Origin: Cyanophyceae cyanobacterium
Lineage (GTDB): Bacteria > Cyanobacteriota > Cyanobacteriia > Cyanobacteriales > JBHJGN01
DNA: 64,000 nt
Assembly (NCBI GenBank): GCA_050331735.1
Contig: JBHJGN010000016.1
Span: forward strand, 46,515 to 110,514
Direction: 5' to 3'
Shown here: positions 4,727 to 10,901 of the stretch, piece by piece
Layout: each line of letters starts with the position of its first letter
Position numbering within the stretch: position 1 is the first letter of the stretch
Notes under the pieces: model-generated
Told to the model about the DNA's origin: nothing
Database searches by the model: none
The model's input: only the letters and a program-made list of their open reading frames with translations
Position numbers and translations under genes: made by a program

Positions 4727-7702
4727 TCACTGAGCATCCATCCAGTTTTGCCCGACGCGCACATCCACAACCAAAGGTACGCTTAGCTCTACCGCATTCT
4801 CCATTGTAGAAACAATCTGAGGCTGCAACCCTTCCCACTCATCGGGGGGAACTTCAAACACCAGTTCATCGTGAACCTGAAGCAACAACTGGGCCTGATA
4901 GTTTTGTAAAATGGAGTGTAGCTTGACCATCGCAATTTTAATAATATCAGCGCTAGAGCCTTGGATTGGGGCGTTAGCGGCGGCTCTAAGCAACTGGGCA
5001 TCGCCGTAGTTCATCTTGATTTGGCTCAGGTTGAGCGCATCCGGGTTGCAGCCGCGCAGCTTCATTAAATTTTTGCTGGCAAAGTTGAAGTAGCGCCGCC
5101 GTCCTAAAATGGTGGTAACGTATCCATGAGCGATCGCCTCTCGCTTCATCTTCTCTAAATACGCAAATACCTCAGCATAGCGGCTGCGGTACTTTTCAAT
5201 AAACGCTTTACCTTCTTTCGCGCTCACTCCCGCTTCTCTAGCGAATCGCTGCGCTCCCATGCCGTAGATCACGCCGAAGTTAATAATCTTGCCAAGGCGG
5301 CGTTCTTGAGAAGTTACGGACTCTTTATCAAAAATTAGCTTCGCCGTCACGCCATGCACGTCACTTCCAGTACGATAGGCTTCTAGCAGCACTGGCTGCT
5401 GAGTGAGGTGAGCCAAAATTCTCAACTCAATTTGGGAATAATCCACCGCAACCAATTGCCATCCTGGCTTAGGAATAAATGCCTGACGGATTTTGCGCGA
5501 GAACTCAGTCCGAATCGGAATGTTTTGCAGATTGGGATCAGAAGAAGAAAGTCGTCCGGTGGTGGTAACGCTTTGATTAAAGTTGGTATGTACTCTCCCC
5601 GTATCTGAACGAACCAGCGCTGGTAAAGCATCAACGTAGGTAGACTTGAGCTTAGACAGCGTACGATGCTCCAGCACCGTGCTGACGATGGCGTGGTCAT
5701 GCTGGAGCTTTTCTAAAGTCGCGTGATCGGTTGAATATCCTGTTTTTGTCTTTCGCGACTTACTGCGATCGAGTCCAAGTTTTTCAAACAAAATCTCGCC
5801 AAGCTGTTTCGGAGAACCGAGATTAAATTCCTCGCCTGCATACTGATAAGCCTGAGCTTCCAGCCTTTGCAAATCCTGTTCTAGCTGCTGAGACAGTCTG
5901 TGCAGATACTCTGTATCAATGCATACCCCGCGATCTTCCATCGCCGCTAAAACTGGTTCTAGTGGTTGCTCAACCTCCAACAGCAGCTTGCGGAGTTCCG
6001 GTTGTTTCAGTTCAGCGTTGAGGACTGAAACGAGGCAAAAAGTAACATACGCATCTAAGCCACAGTAGTCAGCTACTTTCTGAATTTCTAAATCGGCAAT
6101 GGTTTTTCCTTTGGGAATTTTTAGCTCTTTATAACTCAGAGATCTGATTCCCGATAAATATTCCTCGGCTAAATCCTCTAGTTTATGACTCTGTTCGGGA
6201 CGCAGCACGTAGCTAGCCAGCATTGTATCAAACACAACTCCGGCTAGCCTAATTCCCTGATGCCACAAAATCACCCGGTCGAATTTAGCATTTTGAAAGG
6301 CTTTTGGGTAGTTTTCATCTTCTAGTATCGGACGCAGCGCTGATAGAACCTGCTCCTTGGCAAGCTGGTGTCCTTGAGTATGTGCGGTGGGAATATACGC
6401 TACATCAGTTGCCCCCCAACAGCAGCCAATGCCAACTAATTCAGCATCTCGCGGATTTAACGACGTTGTTTCTGTATCCCAAGCAACGGGATGATTTTTG
6501 TCGGTATGAGTTTTAAGAAGCTCAACTAATTCTGTGAGTTGCTCTGAAGTGTCAATAATTTTTGGAGCAACGGACGATGAGTAAACGACGGTTTGTTCGG
6601 CTGACTCCGGCTGTTCAGAACTTGAATCAGATCCCGCTGCAAATAATGCCAACTGTCCATCTGGATTAGATGTCGCTGAAGGAAGTGGTTCTTTCCCTGA
6701 AATATTAGCACTATCTTCTACGGGGGCAGATGTACCGCCAAATTTTTCCTGTAGCCGGTCAATTCTCTTGAGGAATGTTTTGAGCTCTAGCTCTTCTAAA
6801 ATAGGTTTTAATGCTTCACTGTCAAATCCTTGAAGCTTGCACTCTTCTAAAACAACATCTACGGGAGTATCTAAGTGAATCTGTGCTAGGTACTGGGAGT
6901 GCAAAGCGTCTGCTTTGCCCGTTTCTAGCTTTTTCTGAACGGCTCCGCCAATGTTATCTAAGTTTTGATAGATTGTTGCTAGATCGCCGTATTCTTGCAG
7001 GAGTTTGACGGCGGTTTTATCTCCGATGCCGCGAACCCCGGGAATATTATCAGATTTGTCTCCACACAAGGCTTTATAGTCTACAACCTGATGAGGCTTG
7101 ATTCCAAGCTTTTCCTCAACAGCGATGGGATCCATTTCTATGTAGCCTTCGCTGGAGCGGTTTTTTAAAGCACTGTTGCTCAAGTAGAGAACTTTAATAT
7201 TATTCTGGTCAACCAGTTGAAATAAATCGCGATCGCCTGTTAAAATCTTGACTCGATACCCAGCAAGGCTTGCCTTTTGGGCTAGTGTCCCTAAAACGTC
7301 ATCGGCTTCGTATCCAGGAGCCGTAATCACTGGTAAGTTGAGAGCCGCCAGCAGCTCTTTGAGATTGTTTAAATCAGGAACAAAATCTTCTGGAGTTTCT
7401 TTTCTGTCAGCTTTATAGTTCGCATCCGCTTCATGGCGAAAGGTTGGTTCTCCACGGTCAAAGGCAACAGCGACGAACTGAGGCTGCTGGGACTCCACCA
7501 CCTGAGTCAAAGAATTAAGAAACCCAAAGCAGATGCTGGTGGGAATCCCCGTCGAAGTTTTGAGCGGACCTTTCCTCGATGTCGCAAACGCATAATAGGC
7601 CCGAAAAGCTAGAGAATGACCGTCTATCAAAACCAATAGCGGTGCTGTCTCTGACTCGGAACCGCCGGAGAAGGAAGGAGAGGAAGGAGAAAATTCAGAC
7701 AT
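4727..7702 (-). CDS. polA: DNA polymerase I
   Basis: 5'-3' exo (LIDGHSLAFRAYY, GDKSDNIPGV), 3'-5' exo (WDTETT), polymerase motifs DYSQIELR, KIINFGVIYG, QVHDEL. Confidence 0.98.
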   Translation of the reverse strand: MSEFSPSSPSFSGGSESETAPLLVLIDGHSLAFRAYYAFATSRKGPLKTSTGIPTSICFGFLNSLTQVVESQQPQFVAVAFDRGEPTFRHEADANYKADRKETPEDFVPDLNNLKELLAALNLPVITAPGYEADDVLGTLAQKASLAGYRVKILTGDRDLFQLVDQNNIKVLYLSNSALKNRSSEGYIEMDPIAVEEKLGIKPHQVVDYKALCGDKSDNIPGVRGIGDKTAVKLLQEYGDLATIYQNLDNIGGAVQKKLETGKADALHSQYLAQIHLDTPVDVVLEECKLQGFDSEALKPILEELELKTFLKRIDRLQEKFGGTSAPVEDSANISGKEPLPSATSNPDGQLALFAAGSDSSSEQPESAEQTVVYSSSVAPKIIDTSEQLTELVELLKTHTDKNHPVAWDTETTSLNPRDAELVGIGCCWGATDVAYIPTAHTQGHQLAKEQVLSALRPILEDENYPKAFQNAKFDRVILWHQGIRLAGVVFDTMLASYVLRPEQSHKLEDLAEEYLSGIRSLSYKELKIPKGKTIADLEIQKVADYCGLDAYVTFCLVSVLNAELKQPELRKLLLEVEQPLEPVLAAMEDRGVCIDTEYLHRLSQQLEQDLQRLEAQAYQYAGEEFNLGSPKQLGEILFEKLGLDRSKSRKTKTGYSTDHATLEKLQHDHAIVSTVLEHRTLSKLKSTYVDALPALVRSDTGRVHTNFNQSVTTTGRLSSSDPNLQNIPIRTEFSRKIRQAFIPKPGWQLVAVDYSQIELRILAHLTQQPVLLEAYRTGSDVHGVTAKLIFDKESVTSQERRLGKIINFGVIYGMGAQRFAREAGVSAKEGKAFIEKYRSRYAEVFAYLEKMKREAIAHGYVTTILGRRRYFNFASKNLMKLRGCNPDALNLSQIKMNYGDAQLLRAAANAPIQGSSADIIKIAMVKLHSILQNYQAQLLLQVHDELVFEVPPDEWEGLQPQIVSTMENAVELSVPLVVDVRVGQNWMDAQ

Positions 7703-7805
7703 ACATCTATTTTAGCGAGAGACTTTGGCCACCAAGGAACCCAGAAGGGTGCTGCGACCATAAACTTGTTTTGGTCGTAGGGAAATTCTGGGGCAGTAGT
7801 GAGAG

Positions 7806-8204
7806 CTAAGCACTATCTTGATTTTTGATATAGTCTTTAATTTTCTCTAAGGTAGCACCGCCGCAGGAGTTGACGGCATAACCCAGCGACCAAAGAACGG
7901 GCTTGCGATAAAACCCCGACAAATAATCGCTAAACTCCTTGCGAACCAGGCGAGAAGAAACCGTTTTAAGGTTGTTGACCAACTTGCTAGGAGCGACTTT
8001 TGGGTTAACGTCGAGCAGGACGTGCAGATGGTCAGCCTCCGTATTGAACTCCAAAACCGAGCAATCCCATTTAGAACAAGTATCGTGGAAGATTTGTTCT
8101 AGCCGTTCATGGATAGCTCGGTTAATCACTTTATAACGATATTTTGTCACTATAACTAAGTGTAGTTTCAAGCTGTAAACAGCTCCGCTCGTTGACTTGT
8201 GCAT
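7806..8204 (-). CDS. tnpA: IS200/IS605 Y1 (HUH) transposase
   Basis: HLVIVTKYR, HUH motif DHLHVL, LKTVSSR, catalytic Tyr in KDYIKNQ; ATG at 8204 gives a typical 132 aa protein. Confidence 0.93.
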   Translation of the reverse strand: MHKSTSGAVYSLKLHLVIVTKYRYKVINRAIHERLEQIFHDTCSKWDCSVLEFNTEADHLHVLLDVNPKVAPSKLVNNLKTVSSRLVRKEFSDYLSGFYRKPVLWSLGYAVNSCGGATLEKIKDYIKNQDSA

Positions 8205-8231
8205 TATTGGACTAAGTGATACAATCTGTTC

Positions 8232-9611
8232 ATGATACTCGCGCACGTCTACAAGCTCAAGCCCTCGCCCTCCCAATCGGCACTAATGCACGACTGGCTG
8301 AACATGCTGCGGGCGCACTACAACTTCTCCTTGCGAGACCGTATTGAAGCCTATGAACAGGCAAGAAGTCCTGTGCTAGGTAACTACTCTCGACTGGACA
8401 ACCAGGGGAGGACGCGACACCGGAACTTGGTTCCGGTGCGCGAGTCGTCCGTGGTGTGCTGCCCATTGACTTGCTCAGTTAACAAAACAGCAACAGTGGG
8501 CTATCCTTGGACAAAAGTGGGGAAGAGGCGCTCTGCGGGGATGCAGCAGGACGCTTACCTACCGGAGATGAAGTCAGCTAGACCTTGGTATAAGCGAATT
8601 AACTCTGACGTTCTGCAAACGAACCTGCGGCGGCTCAACGATGCCTTTAACCGTTTCTTTGACGGACTAGAAAAGTATCCCCAGTTCAAGACTCGCAGTA
8701 AGTTTCGCTCTTTTAGCTACAAGCCCAAGCAGGTCAAGATGGAAGGGAATCGAGTTTATCTGCCAGGGTTGGGCTGGATGCGCTTTTACCTATCTCGTCC
8801 TCTGCCAGAGGGGTTTGAAATTAGAACGGTAACGGTAAGGCGCAAGAGTGACGGCTGGCATATGTCGGTGCGGCTAGAGAACGAGGATGTTCCTAGCCTG
8901 ATGCCAAAAGAAACCAGCCAAATTGGTTCAGCCATAGCAGTAGACTTGGGCATTAGGAAGCTAGCGGCGTTGAGCAACGGGGAGTTGGTTGAAAATCCTA
9001 GATTTTCCAAGCGAGTCGAGCGCCGAAAACGGATTAGGCAAAAAGCCGCTGCCAGGAAGATCAAAGGGTCGAAGAATCGCGCCTCGGCGTATCGATATTT
9101 GGCGAAGCTAGACCAGAAAGTAGCTAGAGGGCGAGCCGACTATCACTGGAAGCTAGCTAACCAGTTAGCCCGTGCTGGAGATGCCATTATTTTTGAGGCA
9201 CTCAACATCCGAGGCATGATGGCAAGGTGCAAGCCGAAGCAGTGTCCAGAAACTGGGAAGTATCTTAAGAACGGGCAGGCGGCTAAGCGCGGTCTCAATC
9301 GCGTTATTGCTGATGCTGGCTGGGGAGAGCTAAAGCTAAAGACGAAAGCCGTAGCTGCGAAGCTAGGCTTGATCGTCTGCGAAGTTGACCCCAAGTTCAG
9401 CTCTCAAGAGTGTAGTGAATGCGGCTATATCTCTCCGGTTAATCGAGACAAGGAGAAGTTTCTGTGCGAGGCTTGCGGGTACTTCTGCGACGCAGATACT
9501 CAGGCTTCGCATAATTTGCTCCAAAGAGGACTAAAATCTCTGGGAATTAGTCCAGCCCAGCTACGGGGAGTCCCCTCGAAAGTTACACCTAGGAGTTCTG
9601 CTCAGCCGTGA
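8232..9611 (+). CDS. tnpB: RNA-guided endonuclease TnpB
   Basis: N-terminal HTH (YKLKPSPSQ), RuvC-I VDLGIRK, RuvC-II IIFEALNI, Zn ribbon CSECG/CEACG, RuvC-III DADTQASHNL. Confidence 0.93.
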   Translation: MILAHVYKLKPSPSQSALMHDWLNMLRAHYNFSLRDRIEAYEQARSPVLGNYSRLDNQGRTRHRNLVPVRESSVVCCPLTCSVNKTATVGYPWTKVGKRRSAGMQQDAYLPEMKSARPWYKRINSDVLQTNLRRLNDAFNRFFDGLEKYPQFKTRSKFRSFSYKPKQVKMEGNRVYLPGLGWMRFYLSRPLPEGFEIRTVTVRRKSDGWHMSVRLENEDVPSLMPKETSQIGSAIAVDLGIRKLAALSNGELVENPRFSKRVERRKRIRQKAAARKIKGSKNRASAYRYLAKLDQKVARGRADYHWKLANQLARAGDAIIFEALNIRGMMARCKPKQCPETGKYLKNGQAAKRGLNRVIADAGWGELKLKTKAVAAKLGLIVCEVDPKFSSQECSECGYISPVNRDKEKFLCEACGYFCDADTQASHNLLQRGLKSLGISPAQLRGVPSKVTPRSSAQP

Positions 9612-9827
9612 AATGCGGTCGCCCATCTGAATGCGGGACGCTGCATTCCGCAGTTCCCGCATGAGGAGCGACAGAAAACATCATCGGGGTTGCTCGATGA
9701 GCCTAGGAACCCTCGGCAGCTCAGTCTGTTCGAGTGGAGGAATGGTCAAGTAATTGGCTGTTCAGATTCTGCGACTGTAGCTTTAGCTCAATCGTAGAGT
9801 ATGTCAAAAGGACAAATGAGACAACCG
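9560..9827 (+). ncRNA. putative TnpB omega/reRNA (scaffold to 9807, guide from flanking 9808 to about 9827)
   Basis: Lies between the tnpB 3' end and the right end, as for known TnpB reRNAs; several stem-loops (9607-9618, 9631-9662, 9769-9797); 5' boundary is a guess. Confidence 0.55.
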
Positions 9828-10268
9828 CCCCATCTGTTCAGAGACTTTGTTGAGCTTATTCGCCAACCTTTACTGTCTTTTAATAAGTGTAAAGTCCTGT
9901 AAATATCAGGAGCCATGTTTTAAAGAAGGCCTTATCTTAATAAATAAGCACAGAGGCAAGCAAAGCTTAAAGGAAACAGAGATTAGAACTTGTGCTTCCC
10001 GTTCTCAATCTCACCGGCAACTCCTAGAGCTAGCGTCAATTTTAGATAGTTCTGCTTCTAATCTGCTAAGAGATTAATGCTAACAGATTAGTCAAAGTAG
10101 CCGCTATAAGTATCGCCTGAATCGGTGTTGTGATGCTAGCGAATTAAGAAGCTCTGTTGGTACGTCCACTCTAGTAATAACATTCTTCCTGTTTAGTTAG
10201 GAGTCCAAATCGCTTTTACGTCTTGTACACCCGATCGCCCGCCCTCCCTTGAAGGCGGGCAAATTGTT

Positions 10269-10901
10269 TTAAAGACAAAAGCTCTGGATTTGCTGCCAAA
10301 TCGTCGGCAATGTACTGGTTAACGTGTGATCGCTCTTCAGCTCAATTAATTCTACCCAAGGACGCTGACTAGCATAGTCTCGACTCGCCTGCACTGGAAT
10401 TACTTCATCCGAGCGTCCGTGAAGAATTAGCGTTGGCACAGGGCGCTGTAGCTGAAGTTCTGGGTACTGCTGGATATCAGGAACGAACTGATAGTGAAGC
10501 GGGAGACAGCGCCCCTCGCCGTAGTGATAGATTGATAAATACCCAGTTTCCTGCCATTGCTGAAGCCGACCTCCGAGTTGAGGCAACCAGTATTCCAGAA
10601 AGCTAAAAGCCGGGGCAAGAAGGACCAGTCGCTGTACCTGCTGATGCTGCTGCCCCAACCACGCTGCCGTTAAGCCCCCAAAACTAGAGCCAATAAGGGT
10701 GATTGGGGTAGACGCTGGAAATGCTGCTGCCGCCTGCTGCAATTGCCGGGTTAGCGTCAGATGCGAAAAATCCTCCTGATTCAGGTCGAGAATCTGAAGG
10801 TCAATGTGGCGTTGCCAAAAGCGATCGCGCAAGTACTGAGCCTTTGTTGACCGGGGACCAGAAGCAAAGCCGTGGAGGTAGATGTAGGCAGGTTGAACCA
10901 C
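10269..10901 (-). CDS. YqiA/YcfP-family alpha/beta hydrolase (esterase)
   Basis: YIYLHGFASGPRSTKA, GSSFGG nucleophile elbow, HGRSDEVIP. Confidence 0.85.
   Translation of the reverse strand: MVQPAYIYLHGFASGPRSTKAQYLRDRFWQRHIDLQILDLNQEDFSHLTLTRQLQQAAAAFPASTPITLIGSSFGGLTAAWLGQQHQQVQRLVLLAPAFSFLEYWLPQLGGRLQQWQETGYLSIYHYGEGRCLPLHYQFVPDIQQYPELQLQRPVPTLILHGRSDEVIPVQASRDYASQRPWVELIELKSDHTLTSTLPTIWQQIQSFCL

Follow-up and report, generated by a model that had tools for sequence, protein, structure and literature searches.

The 64,000-nucleotide (nt) stretch from a Cyanophyceae cyanobacterium analyzed here (contig JBHJGN010000016.1, positions 46,515 to 110,514; hereafter the window) carries, at about 7729-9807, an IS200/IS605-type element of about 2.08 kb with divergent tnpA and tnpB genes. 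In the family to which its TnpB belongs, the reading frame usually runs past the nuclease core into DNA that is also predicted to specify the scaffold of the guide RNA (omega RNA or reRNA), where it encodes a tail with a QLxLF motif of the type that binds the sliding clamp. In the window copy this tail is cut off by a TGA that lies within a copy-specific insert. This explanation as a whole, docking of the tail on the clamp included, is considered quite likely. Its anatomical and comparative parts taken alone, namely the anatomy, the in-frame relatives, the private insert-borne stop, the RNA covariation, and the codon use that fits a peptide, are held with high confidence.

The tnpB gene (8232-9611, plus strand) encodes 459 amino acids (aa) and ends at TGA (9609-9611), with the HTH, OrfB_IS605 (RuvC), and zinc-ribbon TNB domains all 5' of this stop. 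Behind it the same frame remains open for 61 sense codons (9612-9794) up to TAG at 9795-9797, and the cut-off tail open reading frame (ORF) therefore occupies 9612-9797 on the plus strand. Read in the tnpB frame, 9540-9800 gives ...RSSAQP, the stop, NAVAHLNAGRCIPQFPHEERQKTSSGLLDEPRNPRQLSLFEWRNGQVIGCSDSATVALAQS, and the second stop. The sliding-clamp-type pentapeptide QLSLF is encoded at 9717-9731 (plus strand) by CAG CTC AGT CTG TTC and lies outside translated TnpB in this copy, the same-frame TGA being 35 codons upstream. The original prediction, which was made from the letters of the window, had described the TGA, the frame open to TAG, and the QLSLF peptide, and its coordinates and peptide proved exact on re-translation. 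The open frame alone is weak evidence, because 61 stop-free codons are expected in random sequence with a chance of about 0.05 by simple arithmetic. The tail is more than chance because relatives carry QL.LF in frame, as the counts below show, and from QKTS onward it is homologous to their in-frame C-termini.

A protein search yielded 1066 relatives among 7533 candidates, and the C-termini of the best 120 of the 1066 were examined; these 120 include the window's own protein and four fragments without the zinc finger. Most of them are 465-518 aa long. The nearest, at 80% identity, has 518 aa versus 459 aa here, which is about the length that the window's tnpB would have if it were read through. 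Of the 120, 88 have QL.LF among their 50 C-terminal residues, and three more have a relaxed form (QLSLW or QLSLL). At the DNA level, 35 loci were fetched from genomes and 80 from metagenomes. After 16 of these 115 had been left out, since they were without the zinc-finger/RuvC III landmark, 99 loci and the window were evaluable. The motif is in frame ahead of the first stop in 65 of these 100 loci, in frame but behind a stop in one (the window only), in a frame other than that of tnpB in 15, in a relaxed form (QLSLW) in three, and absent from 16. Whether homologs are normally in frame through QLSLF had been named as a check of the original prediction, and both counts bear it out; an outcome in which all homologs stop at the same place, or conserve the motif at the nucleotide level only, was looked for and not found. 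The sequence 3' of the motif varies (EWRNG..., DFNLWSANLVIN, DLMGFCPESPSKSVI, DLMGFCPES..., DISEWSAS, DLEQWRGA), and the motif is still kept. Its setting appears to be a flexible terminal region, since it falls in the last 50 residues in most of the proteins and the tail's own fold is of low confidence (predicted local distance difference test, pLDDT, 50-55).

The TGA of the window copy lies in a structured in-frame insert of 66 nt, or 22 codons (9605-9670, plus strand; fold energy -31.9 kcal/mol), which an alignment of 16 close copies places between the codons for ...RSSA and QKTS.... The insert is absent from 14 of the 15 other aligned sequences, and L088 has a different insert of 51 nt at that junction. 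As judged from this alignment, the TGA either came with the insert or arose within it. The suggestion that it is a private or recent change can thus be retained as to its privacy, the stop being insert-borne and absent from the sister variant described below, but it is not a lone point change in an ancestral codon. A second copy of the 66-nt insert was found neither in the same genome (best other match 70% over 67 nt, E 0.2) nor in the fetched loci, and the idea that it is a repeat was rejected on this ground. In a public DNA run (X1), loose ends occur at 9606 and 9638, where contigs share the part of the insert from 9606 to 9638 and differ on both sides, which points to related sequence elsewhere in that metagenome.

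Run X1 contains two variants of the element. One is the window's own, with 0 differences and a depth of about 52-55. The other, a sister variant of about 89% identity and a depth of about 84-99, joins 9604 directly to 9671; it skips the 66 nt (22 codons), and its ORF is therefore free of stops into QLSLF. Between sister and window there are 25 substitutions and no gaps over 9340-9574, and 16 of the 25 fall at third codon positions (own count). The sister spells QLSLF as CAG TTA TCA CTG TTC versus CAG CTC AGT CTG TTC in the window, so that Leu and Ser are kept through multi-base changes. Its sequence equals the first 141 nt of the assembly contigs C45 and C70 (L002, L003), which diverge afterwards. 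No other full copy was found in the same genome, only these two right-end fragments of 136-141 nt, which are identical over 141 nt. Because the bodies upstream of the C45 and C70 ends are unassembled, the state of the sister was read from the run X1 contigs. A sister depth of about twice that of the window copy fits two further copies with unassembled bodies.

The junction occupied by the insert, and the core-tail linker around it, receive other insertions among the relatives. L061 has a different, 45-nt insert at or beside the same junction that is in frame and stop-free, and the 51-nt insert of L088 is likewise so. In-frame inserts of about 30-51 nt that form hairpins are found repeatedly in the linker (L061:2180-2401, L067, L088:1763-1991, L070, L075, L078), and linker inserts are seen also in the proteins P0017, P0029, P0040, P0041, P0050, P0079, P0081, and P0114. 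Some of them form families, e.g., ...KDAMSEASSDISAVRT... and ...PVLRTGFPPQVTGGT.... Judging by their sequences, these inserts resemble small stem-loops that move or duplicate and leave the reading frame intact.

The DNA of the tail is also predicted to encode the omega/reRNA scaffold (9561-9807, plus strand), the 5' end of which may lie further upstream. It comprises hairpins at 9681-9700, 9710-9737, and 9766-9800, the last being that of the right end (RE), and a fourth hairpin between 9710-9737 and 9766-9800. As a single sequence, 9540-9807 folds with -103 kcal/mol (z -3.45), and a consensus fold of 20 sequences has 47 predicted pairs, 18 of them with compensatory double changes. An Rfam scan of 7500-10500 (E up to 1) matched no family. 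QLSLF is situated on the 9710-9737 hairpin: the codons of NP-x-Q pair with those of L-F-E-W, and the six loop bases are the codons of the first Leu and x. Around it, GAG CCT, AAC CCT, and GAG TGG are invariant at the nucleotide level in 32 of 32 close sequences, third positions included. In the 9681-9700 hairpin, by comparison, codons and amino acids vary freely and the changes are compensatory. The claim, made from the window alone, that one stretch of DNA carries peptide and RNA scaffold together is backed by this covariation and by synonymous turnover at Q, L, L, and F; on this evidence the hairpin segment is dual-coding, for a predicted RNA and a peptide.

Two variations on the hairpin were seen among the relatives. 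In P0049, P0085, L089, L101, and L116, the QLxLF hairpin has inserts in its loop by which the motif is split or replaced (e.g., QLRSPRCLGFPQAFMTDVLFEW), and the frame is mostly open to its usual end. A subclade with a shortened hairpin (L094, L095, L098; P0091, P0092, P0099, P0112, P0115) ends in …EPGNPQQIVERRGA or …GNPHQEWRGA, without QLxLF but with the flanking EPGNP and E(W/R)RGA bases.

Codon use within the motif was used to separate selection on the peptide from selection on the RNA. The sequence sets behind the codon tables were picked by motif pattern; the invariance of Q, L, L, and F is therefore by construction, and only the synonymous spread is informative. At the Leu in the loop (Leu2), 65 unique 36-mers have CTT 14 times, CTC 9, TTG 12, CTA 2, TTA 24, and CTG 4. 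After TT, the third base is a purine in 36 sequences and a pyrimidine in 0, and after CT it is a purine in 6 and a pyrimidine in 23. This dependency between first and third base (Fisher p 2e-12 for unique sequences, uncorrected for phylogeny), with TTR only but CTN, is the one that the genetic code demands of Leu codons. Even close relatives can have CTY in one and TTR in the other (L019/L046, L054/L055, L041/L042, L085/L086, and window/sister). Position 3 of the motif drifts (C, S, T, N, K, I, L, V, E, R), and its Ser is written both as AGY and as TCN. In the in-frame loci only, Q is CAA in 19 and CAG in 19, and F is TTT in 25 and TTC in 13. Q, L4, and F vary synonymously only, unlike the neighboring stem. 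The codon use thus points to selection on the peptide as well as on the RNA.

The 15 loci with the motif outside the tnpB frame provide a contrast to these in-frame copies. Ten Microcoleus-type loci and L112 have it in frame +1, and four Coleofasciculus-type loci in +2. Nine of the 15 still spell QL.LF exactly, and six are replaced at Q or Leu2 (E, K, K, and W three times), while the flanking RNA bases remain. In the Microcoleus type (L028, L030-L035, L037, L038, L045), an extra base after AACCCT moves the motif to frame +1, and the tnpB frame closes at a TGA within the LFEW bases; what is left of the motif is in decay (ELELF, KLELF, QWELF), and the flanking RNA bases are fixed. In the Coleofasciculus type (L021, L022, L024, L091, and the protein cluster P0106 with 16 members), one base is missing in the hairpin loop, which puts the tail in +2. 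This deletion, found in two sequence backgrounds, makes A_AAA_G exactly where a -1 ribosomal slip restores the tail frame; from its sequence the site could be a plain mutation or a recoding site.

QLSLF matches the consensus of sliding-clamp-binding peptides, QL[SD]LF (quoted in PMC6006769). For docking, the DnaN of the same genome (378 aa, aligned with 29 orthologs) was modeled with a 41-aa tail (aligned with 61 relatives). The DnaN-tail model scored 0.69 (0.68-0.72 in three runs), and the best of three controls, a swapped first chain among them, scored 0.00. Of 157 solved complexes, 116 reach the mark for this score, as do 2 of 215 mismatched pairs; this calibration is only rough here, since own alignments were used. 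At least 60% of contacts are shared between the runs, and the pLDDT of the partner is at least 49. In the model, tail residues 13-20 (NPRQLSLF) contact DnaN residues 176-181, 247-255, and 370-377 in the canonical cleft, and the contacted columns T176, H179, R180, L181, P250, Y252, L370, M372, P373, and V374 are invariant among orthologs. Docking of the tail in the DnaN cleft, and with it clamp binding, is predicted with moderate confidence. The identity of the motif with the consensus and a structure model that passed its controls suggest clamp tethering of TnpB, which the original prediction had ascribed to the ancestral protein. At least one extra divergent dnaN-like gene, with 35-43% identity to the DnaN of the window's genome, occurs besides the ortholog in six genomes of the same order (G002, G006, G010, G020, G032, G036).

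Covariation of the hairpin, and flanking codons that are invariant even at third positions, speak for a purely RNA-level account, in which the QLSLF codons are conserved merely for the omega-RNA hairpin that they form, and open frame and peptide are side effects without protein function. Under the same account fall the 15 of 100 loci that keep the sequence outside the tnpB frame, nine of them as exact QL.LF, and the TnpB core of the window copy, which is intact without the tail. However, the loop-borne Leu2 is always Leu, in all six codons, with TTR present and TTY never, and Ser alternates between AGY and TCN. The stem pairs at positions 1-2 of Q and positions 2-3 of L4 never show compensatory changes, which are common in the neighboring hairpin where amino acids vary freely. 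The motif is also kept in clades with different flanking RNA and in unrelated OrfB subfamilies, the out-of-frame copies gather replacements, and the large upstream inserts of L061 and L088 are in frame and stop-free. Conservation for the RNA alone therefore appears unlikely. A little less likely still is a selected peptide with a partner other than the beta clamp, such as TnpA, a further protein of the replisome or of repair, or TnpB in autoinhibition or RNA loading. Although a short linear motif need not point to a single partner, conservation within clades extends to the residues that follow it (EW or D-rich), and the clamp-binding tests in the available part of PMC3971601 used peptides of insertion sequence (IS) families other than OrfB, QLSLF is an exact instance of QL[SD]LF (PMC6006769). 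As expected of a clamp motif, position 3 drifts and fixation is limited to Q, L, L, and F; the model puts the motif in the canonical cleft with all three controls at 0.00.

A further account concerns the stop itself, which the original prediction had allowed to be read through: the TGA of the window copy would be decoded at a useful rate and give a short isoform and one with the clamp motif. The arrangement of a TGA followed by the motif occurs in 1 of 100 evaluable loci, the window, so that there is no conserved read-through signal. All 61 codons behind the TGA are open, which favors recoding, but the insert is young, being absent from a copy of about 89% identity, and an open frame behind it is therefore expected without selection. 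Strong structure lies 3' of the stop, and in the four Coleofasciculus copies, which shift frame at A_AAA_G, a -1 slip would restore the tail; against this, the motif decays in out-of-frame clades. Read-through in the window copy is accordingly judged very unlikely. The same low standing is given to a broader version, in which the tail would be a regulated dual-coded module and the amount of clamp-tethered TnpB would be tuned by recoding (TGA read-through here, a -1 slip in Coleofasciculus, the +1 frame in Microcoleus), balancing translation into a fork-tethered nuclease against an RNA that folds only when ribosomes stop upstream.

Several points weigh against the favored explanation, a dual-coded clamp-type tail lost here through the TGA of the insert. 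Much of the conservation of the tail is at the RNA level, because third positions are invariant and the hairpins covary. Part of the pattern at Q, L4, and F fits the stem, in which position 3 of Q and position 1 of L4 form AU 9 times, GC 7 times, and GU 4 times. Selection on the peptide was judged by codon tables picked by the motif itself, by a Fisher test that ignores relatedness, and by the contrast between in-frame and out-of-frame loci. The motif is dispensable: 16 of 100 loci are without it, 15 have it out of frame, and the shortened-hairpin subclade has lost it. No QLxLF-type motif was found in eight distinct C-termini of other TnpB paralogs of the same genome. Besides its rough calibration, the docking may owe its pass to recall, because clamp-peptide complexes have already been solved. 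That the sister and the window copy reside in the same cell rests on binning and on the depth ratio of about 2:1. The peptides that Gomez et al. (2014; PMC3971601) tested came, in the available part of that paper, from nine other IS families and not from OrfB.

The favored explanation can be put as follows. In this lineage the TnpB frame normally continues past the nuclease core through the omega/reRNA DNA and stops within about 10 nt of the RE. The tail carries a conserved QLxLF[E/D], with Q and the second Leu in a predicted RNA stem and the first Leu and x in its loop. The 66-nt structured insert probably landed in frame at a junction permissive for both the RNA and the protein linker. With its TGA, this copy would therefore make a 459-aa TnpB without the tail, and at least one sister copy in the same sample keeps it. 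By docking in the DnaN cleft, the tail could concentrate TnpB-omega RNA on newly replicated DNA at forks. Excision by TnpA from the lagging-strand template would create an empty site at forks, which the guide, given by the flank from 9808 onward, would recognize; cleavage of the re-formed empty site, with the sister copy as the source for repair, could then follow. Cas12 descends from TnpB, and cutting of the empty donor site helps the transposon persist. The window copy is by default read as an ordinary derived variant, a nuclease without the tether.

If this explanation is true, the clamp peptide kept by a large clade of cyanobacterial TnpB would bring the nuclease to the replication forks at which IS200/IS605 elements are excised, and it would bear on how TnpB finds the empty donor site at the right time. 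The locus also illustrates how a single natural sequence can answer to two constraints, that of an RNA hairpin and that of a linear peptide motif, and the natural knock-outs (the window copy and the out-of-frame clades) show what relaxes once translation is lost.

A putative beta-binding motif at the C-terminus of cyanobacterial IS200/IS605 OrfB was reported by Gomez et al. (2014; PMC3971601), and according to the available part of that paper it seems to be absent at that position in other phyla. Its Table S5 gives nine cyanobacterial OrfB tails, subfamilies with unrelated tails among them. The tail from Crocosphaera watsonii (...EPGNPQ QLSLFEWVNGEVIPC, then a stop) is identical over 41 residues to those of L079 and L099, which belong to the family of the window. 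Thus the motif and its position in this family are the same as in those OrfB tails, and the window copy differs from them in being derived, its motif severed from TnpB by the stop within the insert. Since that paper already lists the motif for cyanobacterial OrfB, the window's family included, novelty is modest. That study predates the recognition of TnpB as an RNA-guided nuclease, and, as far as its available text goes, it is silent on the overlap with the guide RNA and on evidence at the codon level. The present analysis adds to it the anatomy of dual coding, the evidence from codon use, and the variants in which the motif was lost naturally. In a literature search on TnpB and the sliding clamp that left most subscription journals outside, Gomez et al. 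(2014) was the one relevant result, and no paper linking the OrfB/TnpB motif to guide-RNA overlap or to a nuclease role was found; a later mention is possible.

Contact between a mobile-element protein and the beta clamp, proposed or shown, is also known for TnsE of Tn7 (cited in PMC3971601) and for TnpA of IS608 (PMC5027513), and likewise links the element with replication forks. An interaction between IS608 TnpA and DnaN was shown by Lavatine et al. (2016; PMC5027513), who also consider how forks are targeted; the interaction was not abolished when the suspected clamp motif was mutated or deleted. TnsE and IS608 TnpA are transposition or targeting proteins, whereas the motif here is on an accessory RNA-guided nuclease.

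The ends and genes of the element are as follows. The left end (LE; 7729-7805, unstranded) begins with a conserved CCACCA (7729-7734), which possibly includes the target-adjacent motif, followed by a subterminal hairpin, CGACCA...TGGTCG. By blastn, homology to related loci begins at 7728-7745, and the LE hairpin is kept in 10 of 11 aligned left ends. The tnpA gene (7806-8204, minus strand; 132 aa plus stop, translated from an internal ATG) encodes a Y1 (HUH) transposase that matches PF01797 (Y1_Tnp) with E 2.6e-40 over profile positions 2-121 of 121 (at 7809-8204, minus strand). TnpB matches PF01385, PF07282, and PF12323 (OrfB_IS605, Cas12f1-like TNB, HTH_OrfB_IS605), each above the cut-off. 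Its third RuvC motif (DAD, 3' of the zinc finger) is present, and in a sequence alignment D238, E322, and D422 are invariant in 72 aligned sequences. The RE (9766-9807, plus strand) has a subterminal hairpin that resembles that of the LE, and ends in ...GTCAA (9803-9807). Homology among 16 copies breaks off directly after GTCAA, and the two partial copies in the same genome end there too. Homology among the elements thus runs from the conserved CCACCA on the left to GTCAA on the right, with subterminal hairpins at both ends in place of terminal inverted repeats; the RE hairpin is backed by covariation (alignment columns 252-287). From 9808 onward the sequences of the copies diverge, and the flank at 9808-9827 (plus strand) would be the guide of the omega RNA, a role that follows from published TnpB systems.

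ISDra2 exemplifies the TnpB-omega RNA (reRNA) systems, in which the 3' end of tnpB is shared with the RNA scaffold. The element of the window is like these systems in its TnpB domain set, in a predicted structured RNA that ends at the RE with the flank as its guide, and in its Y1 tnpA. Unlike in the ISDra2 type, the overlap here covers the whole scaffold, and one hairpin encodes a conserved linear motif.

The start codon of polA (7702, minus strand) has the LE (about 7729) only about 27 nt upstream of it, so that the element sits in the promoter or leader region of this gene. The polA gene itself (4727-7702, minus strand) encodes QLALF, another clamp-type pentapeptide, at 6641-6655 within NPDGQLALFAAGSD, in an apparent linker after the 5'-nuclease part.

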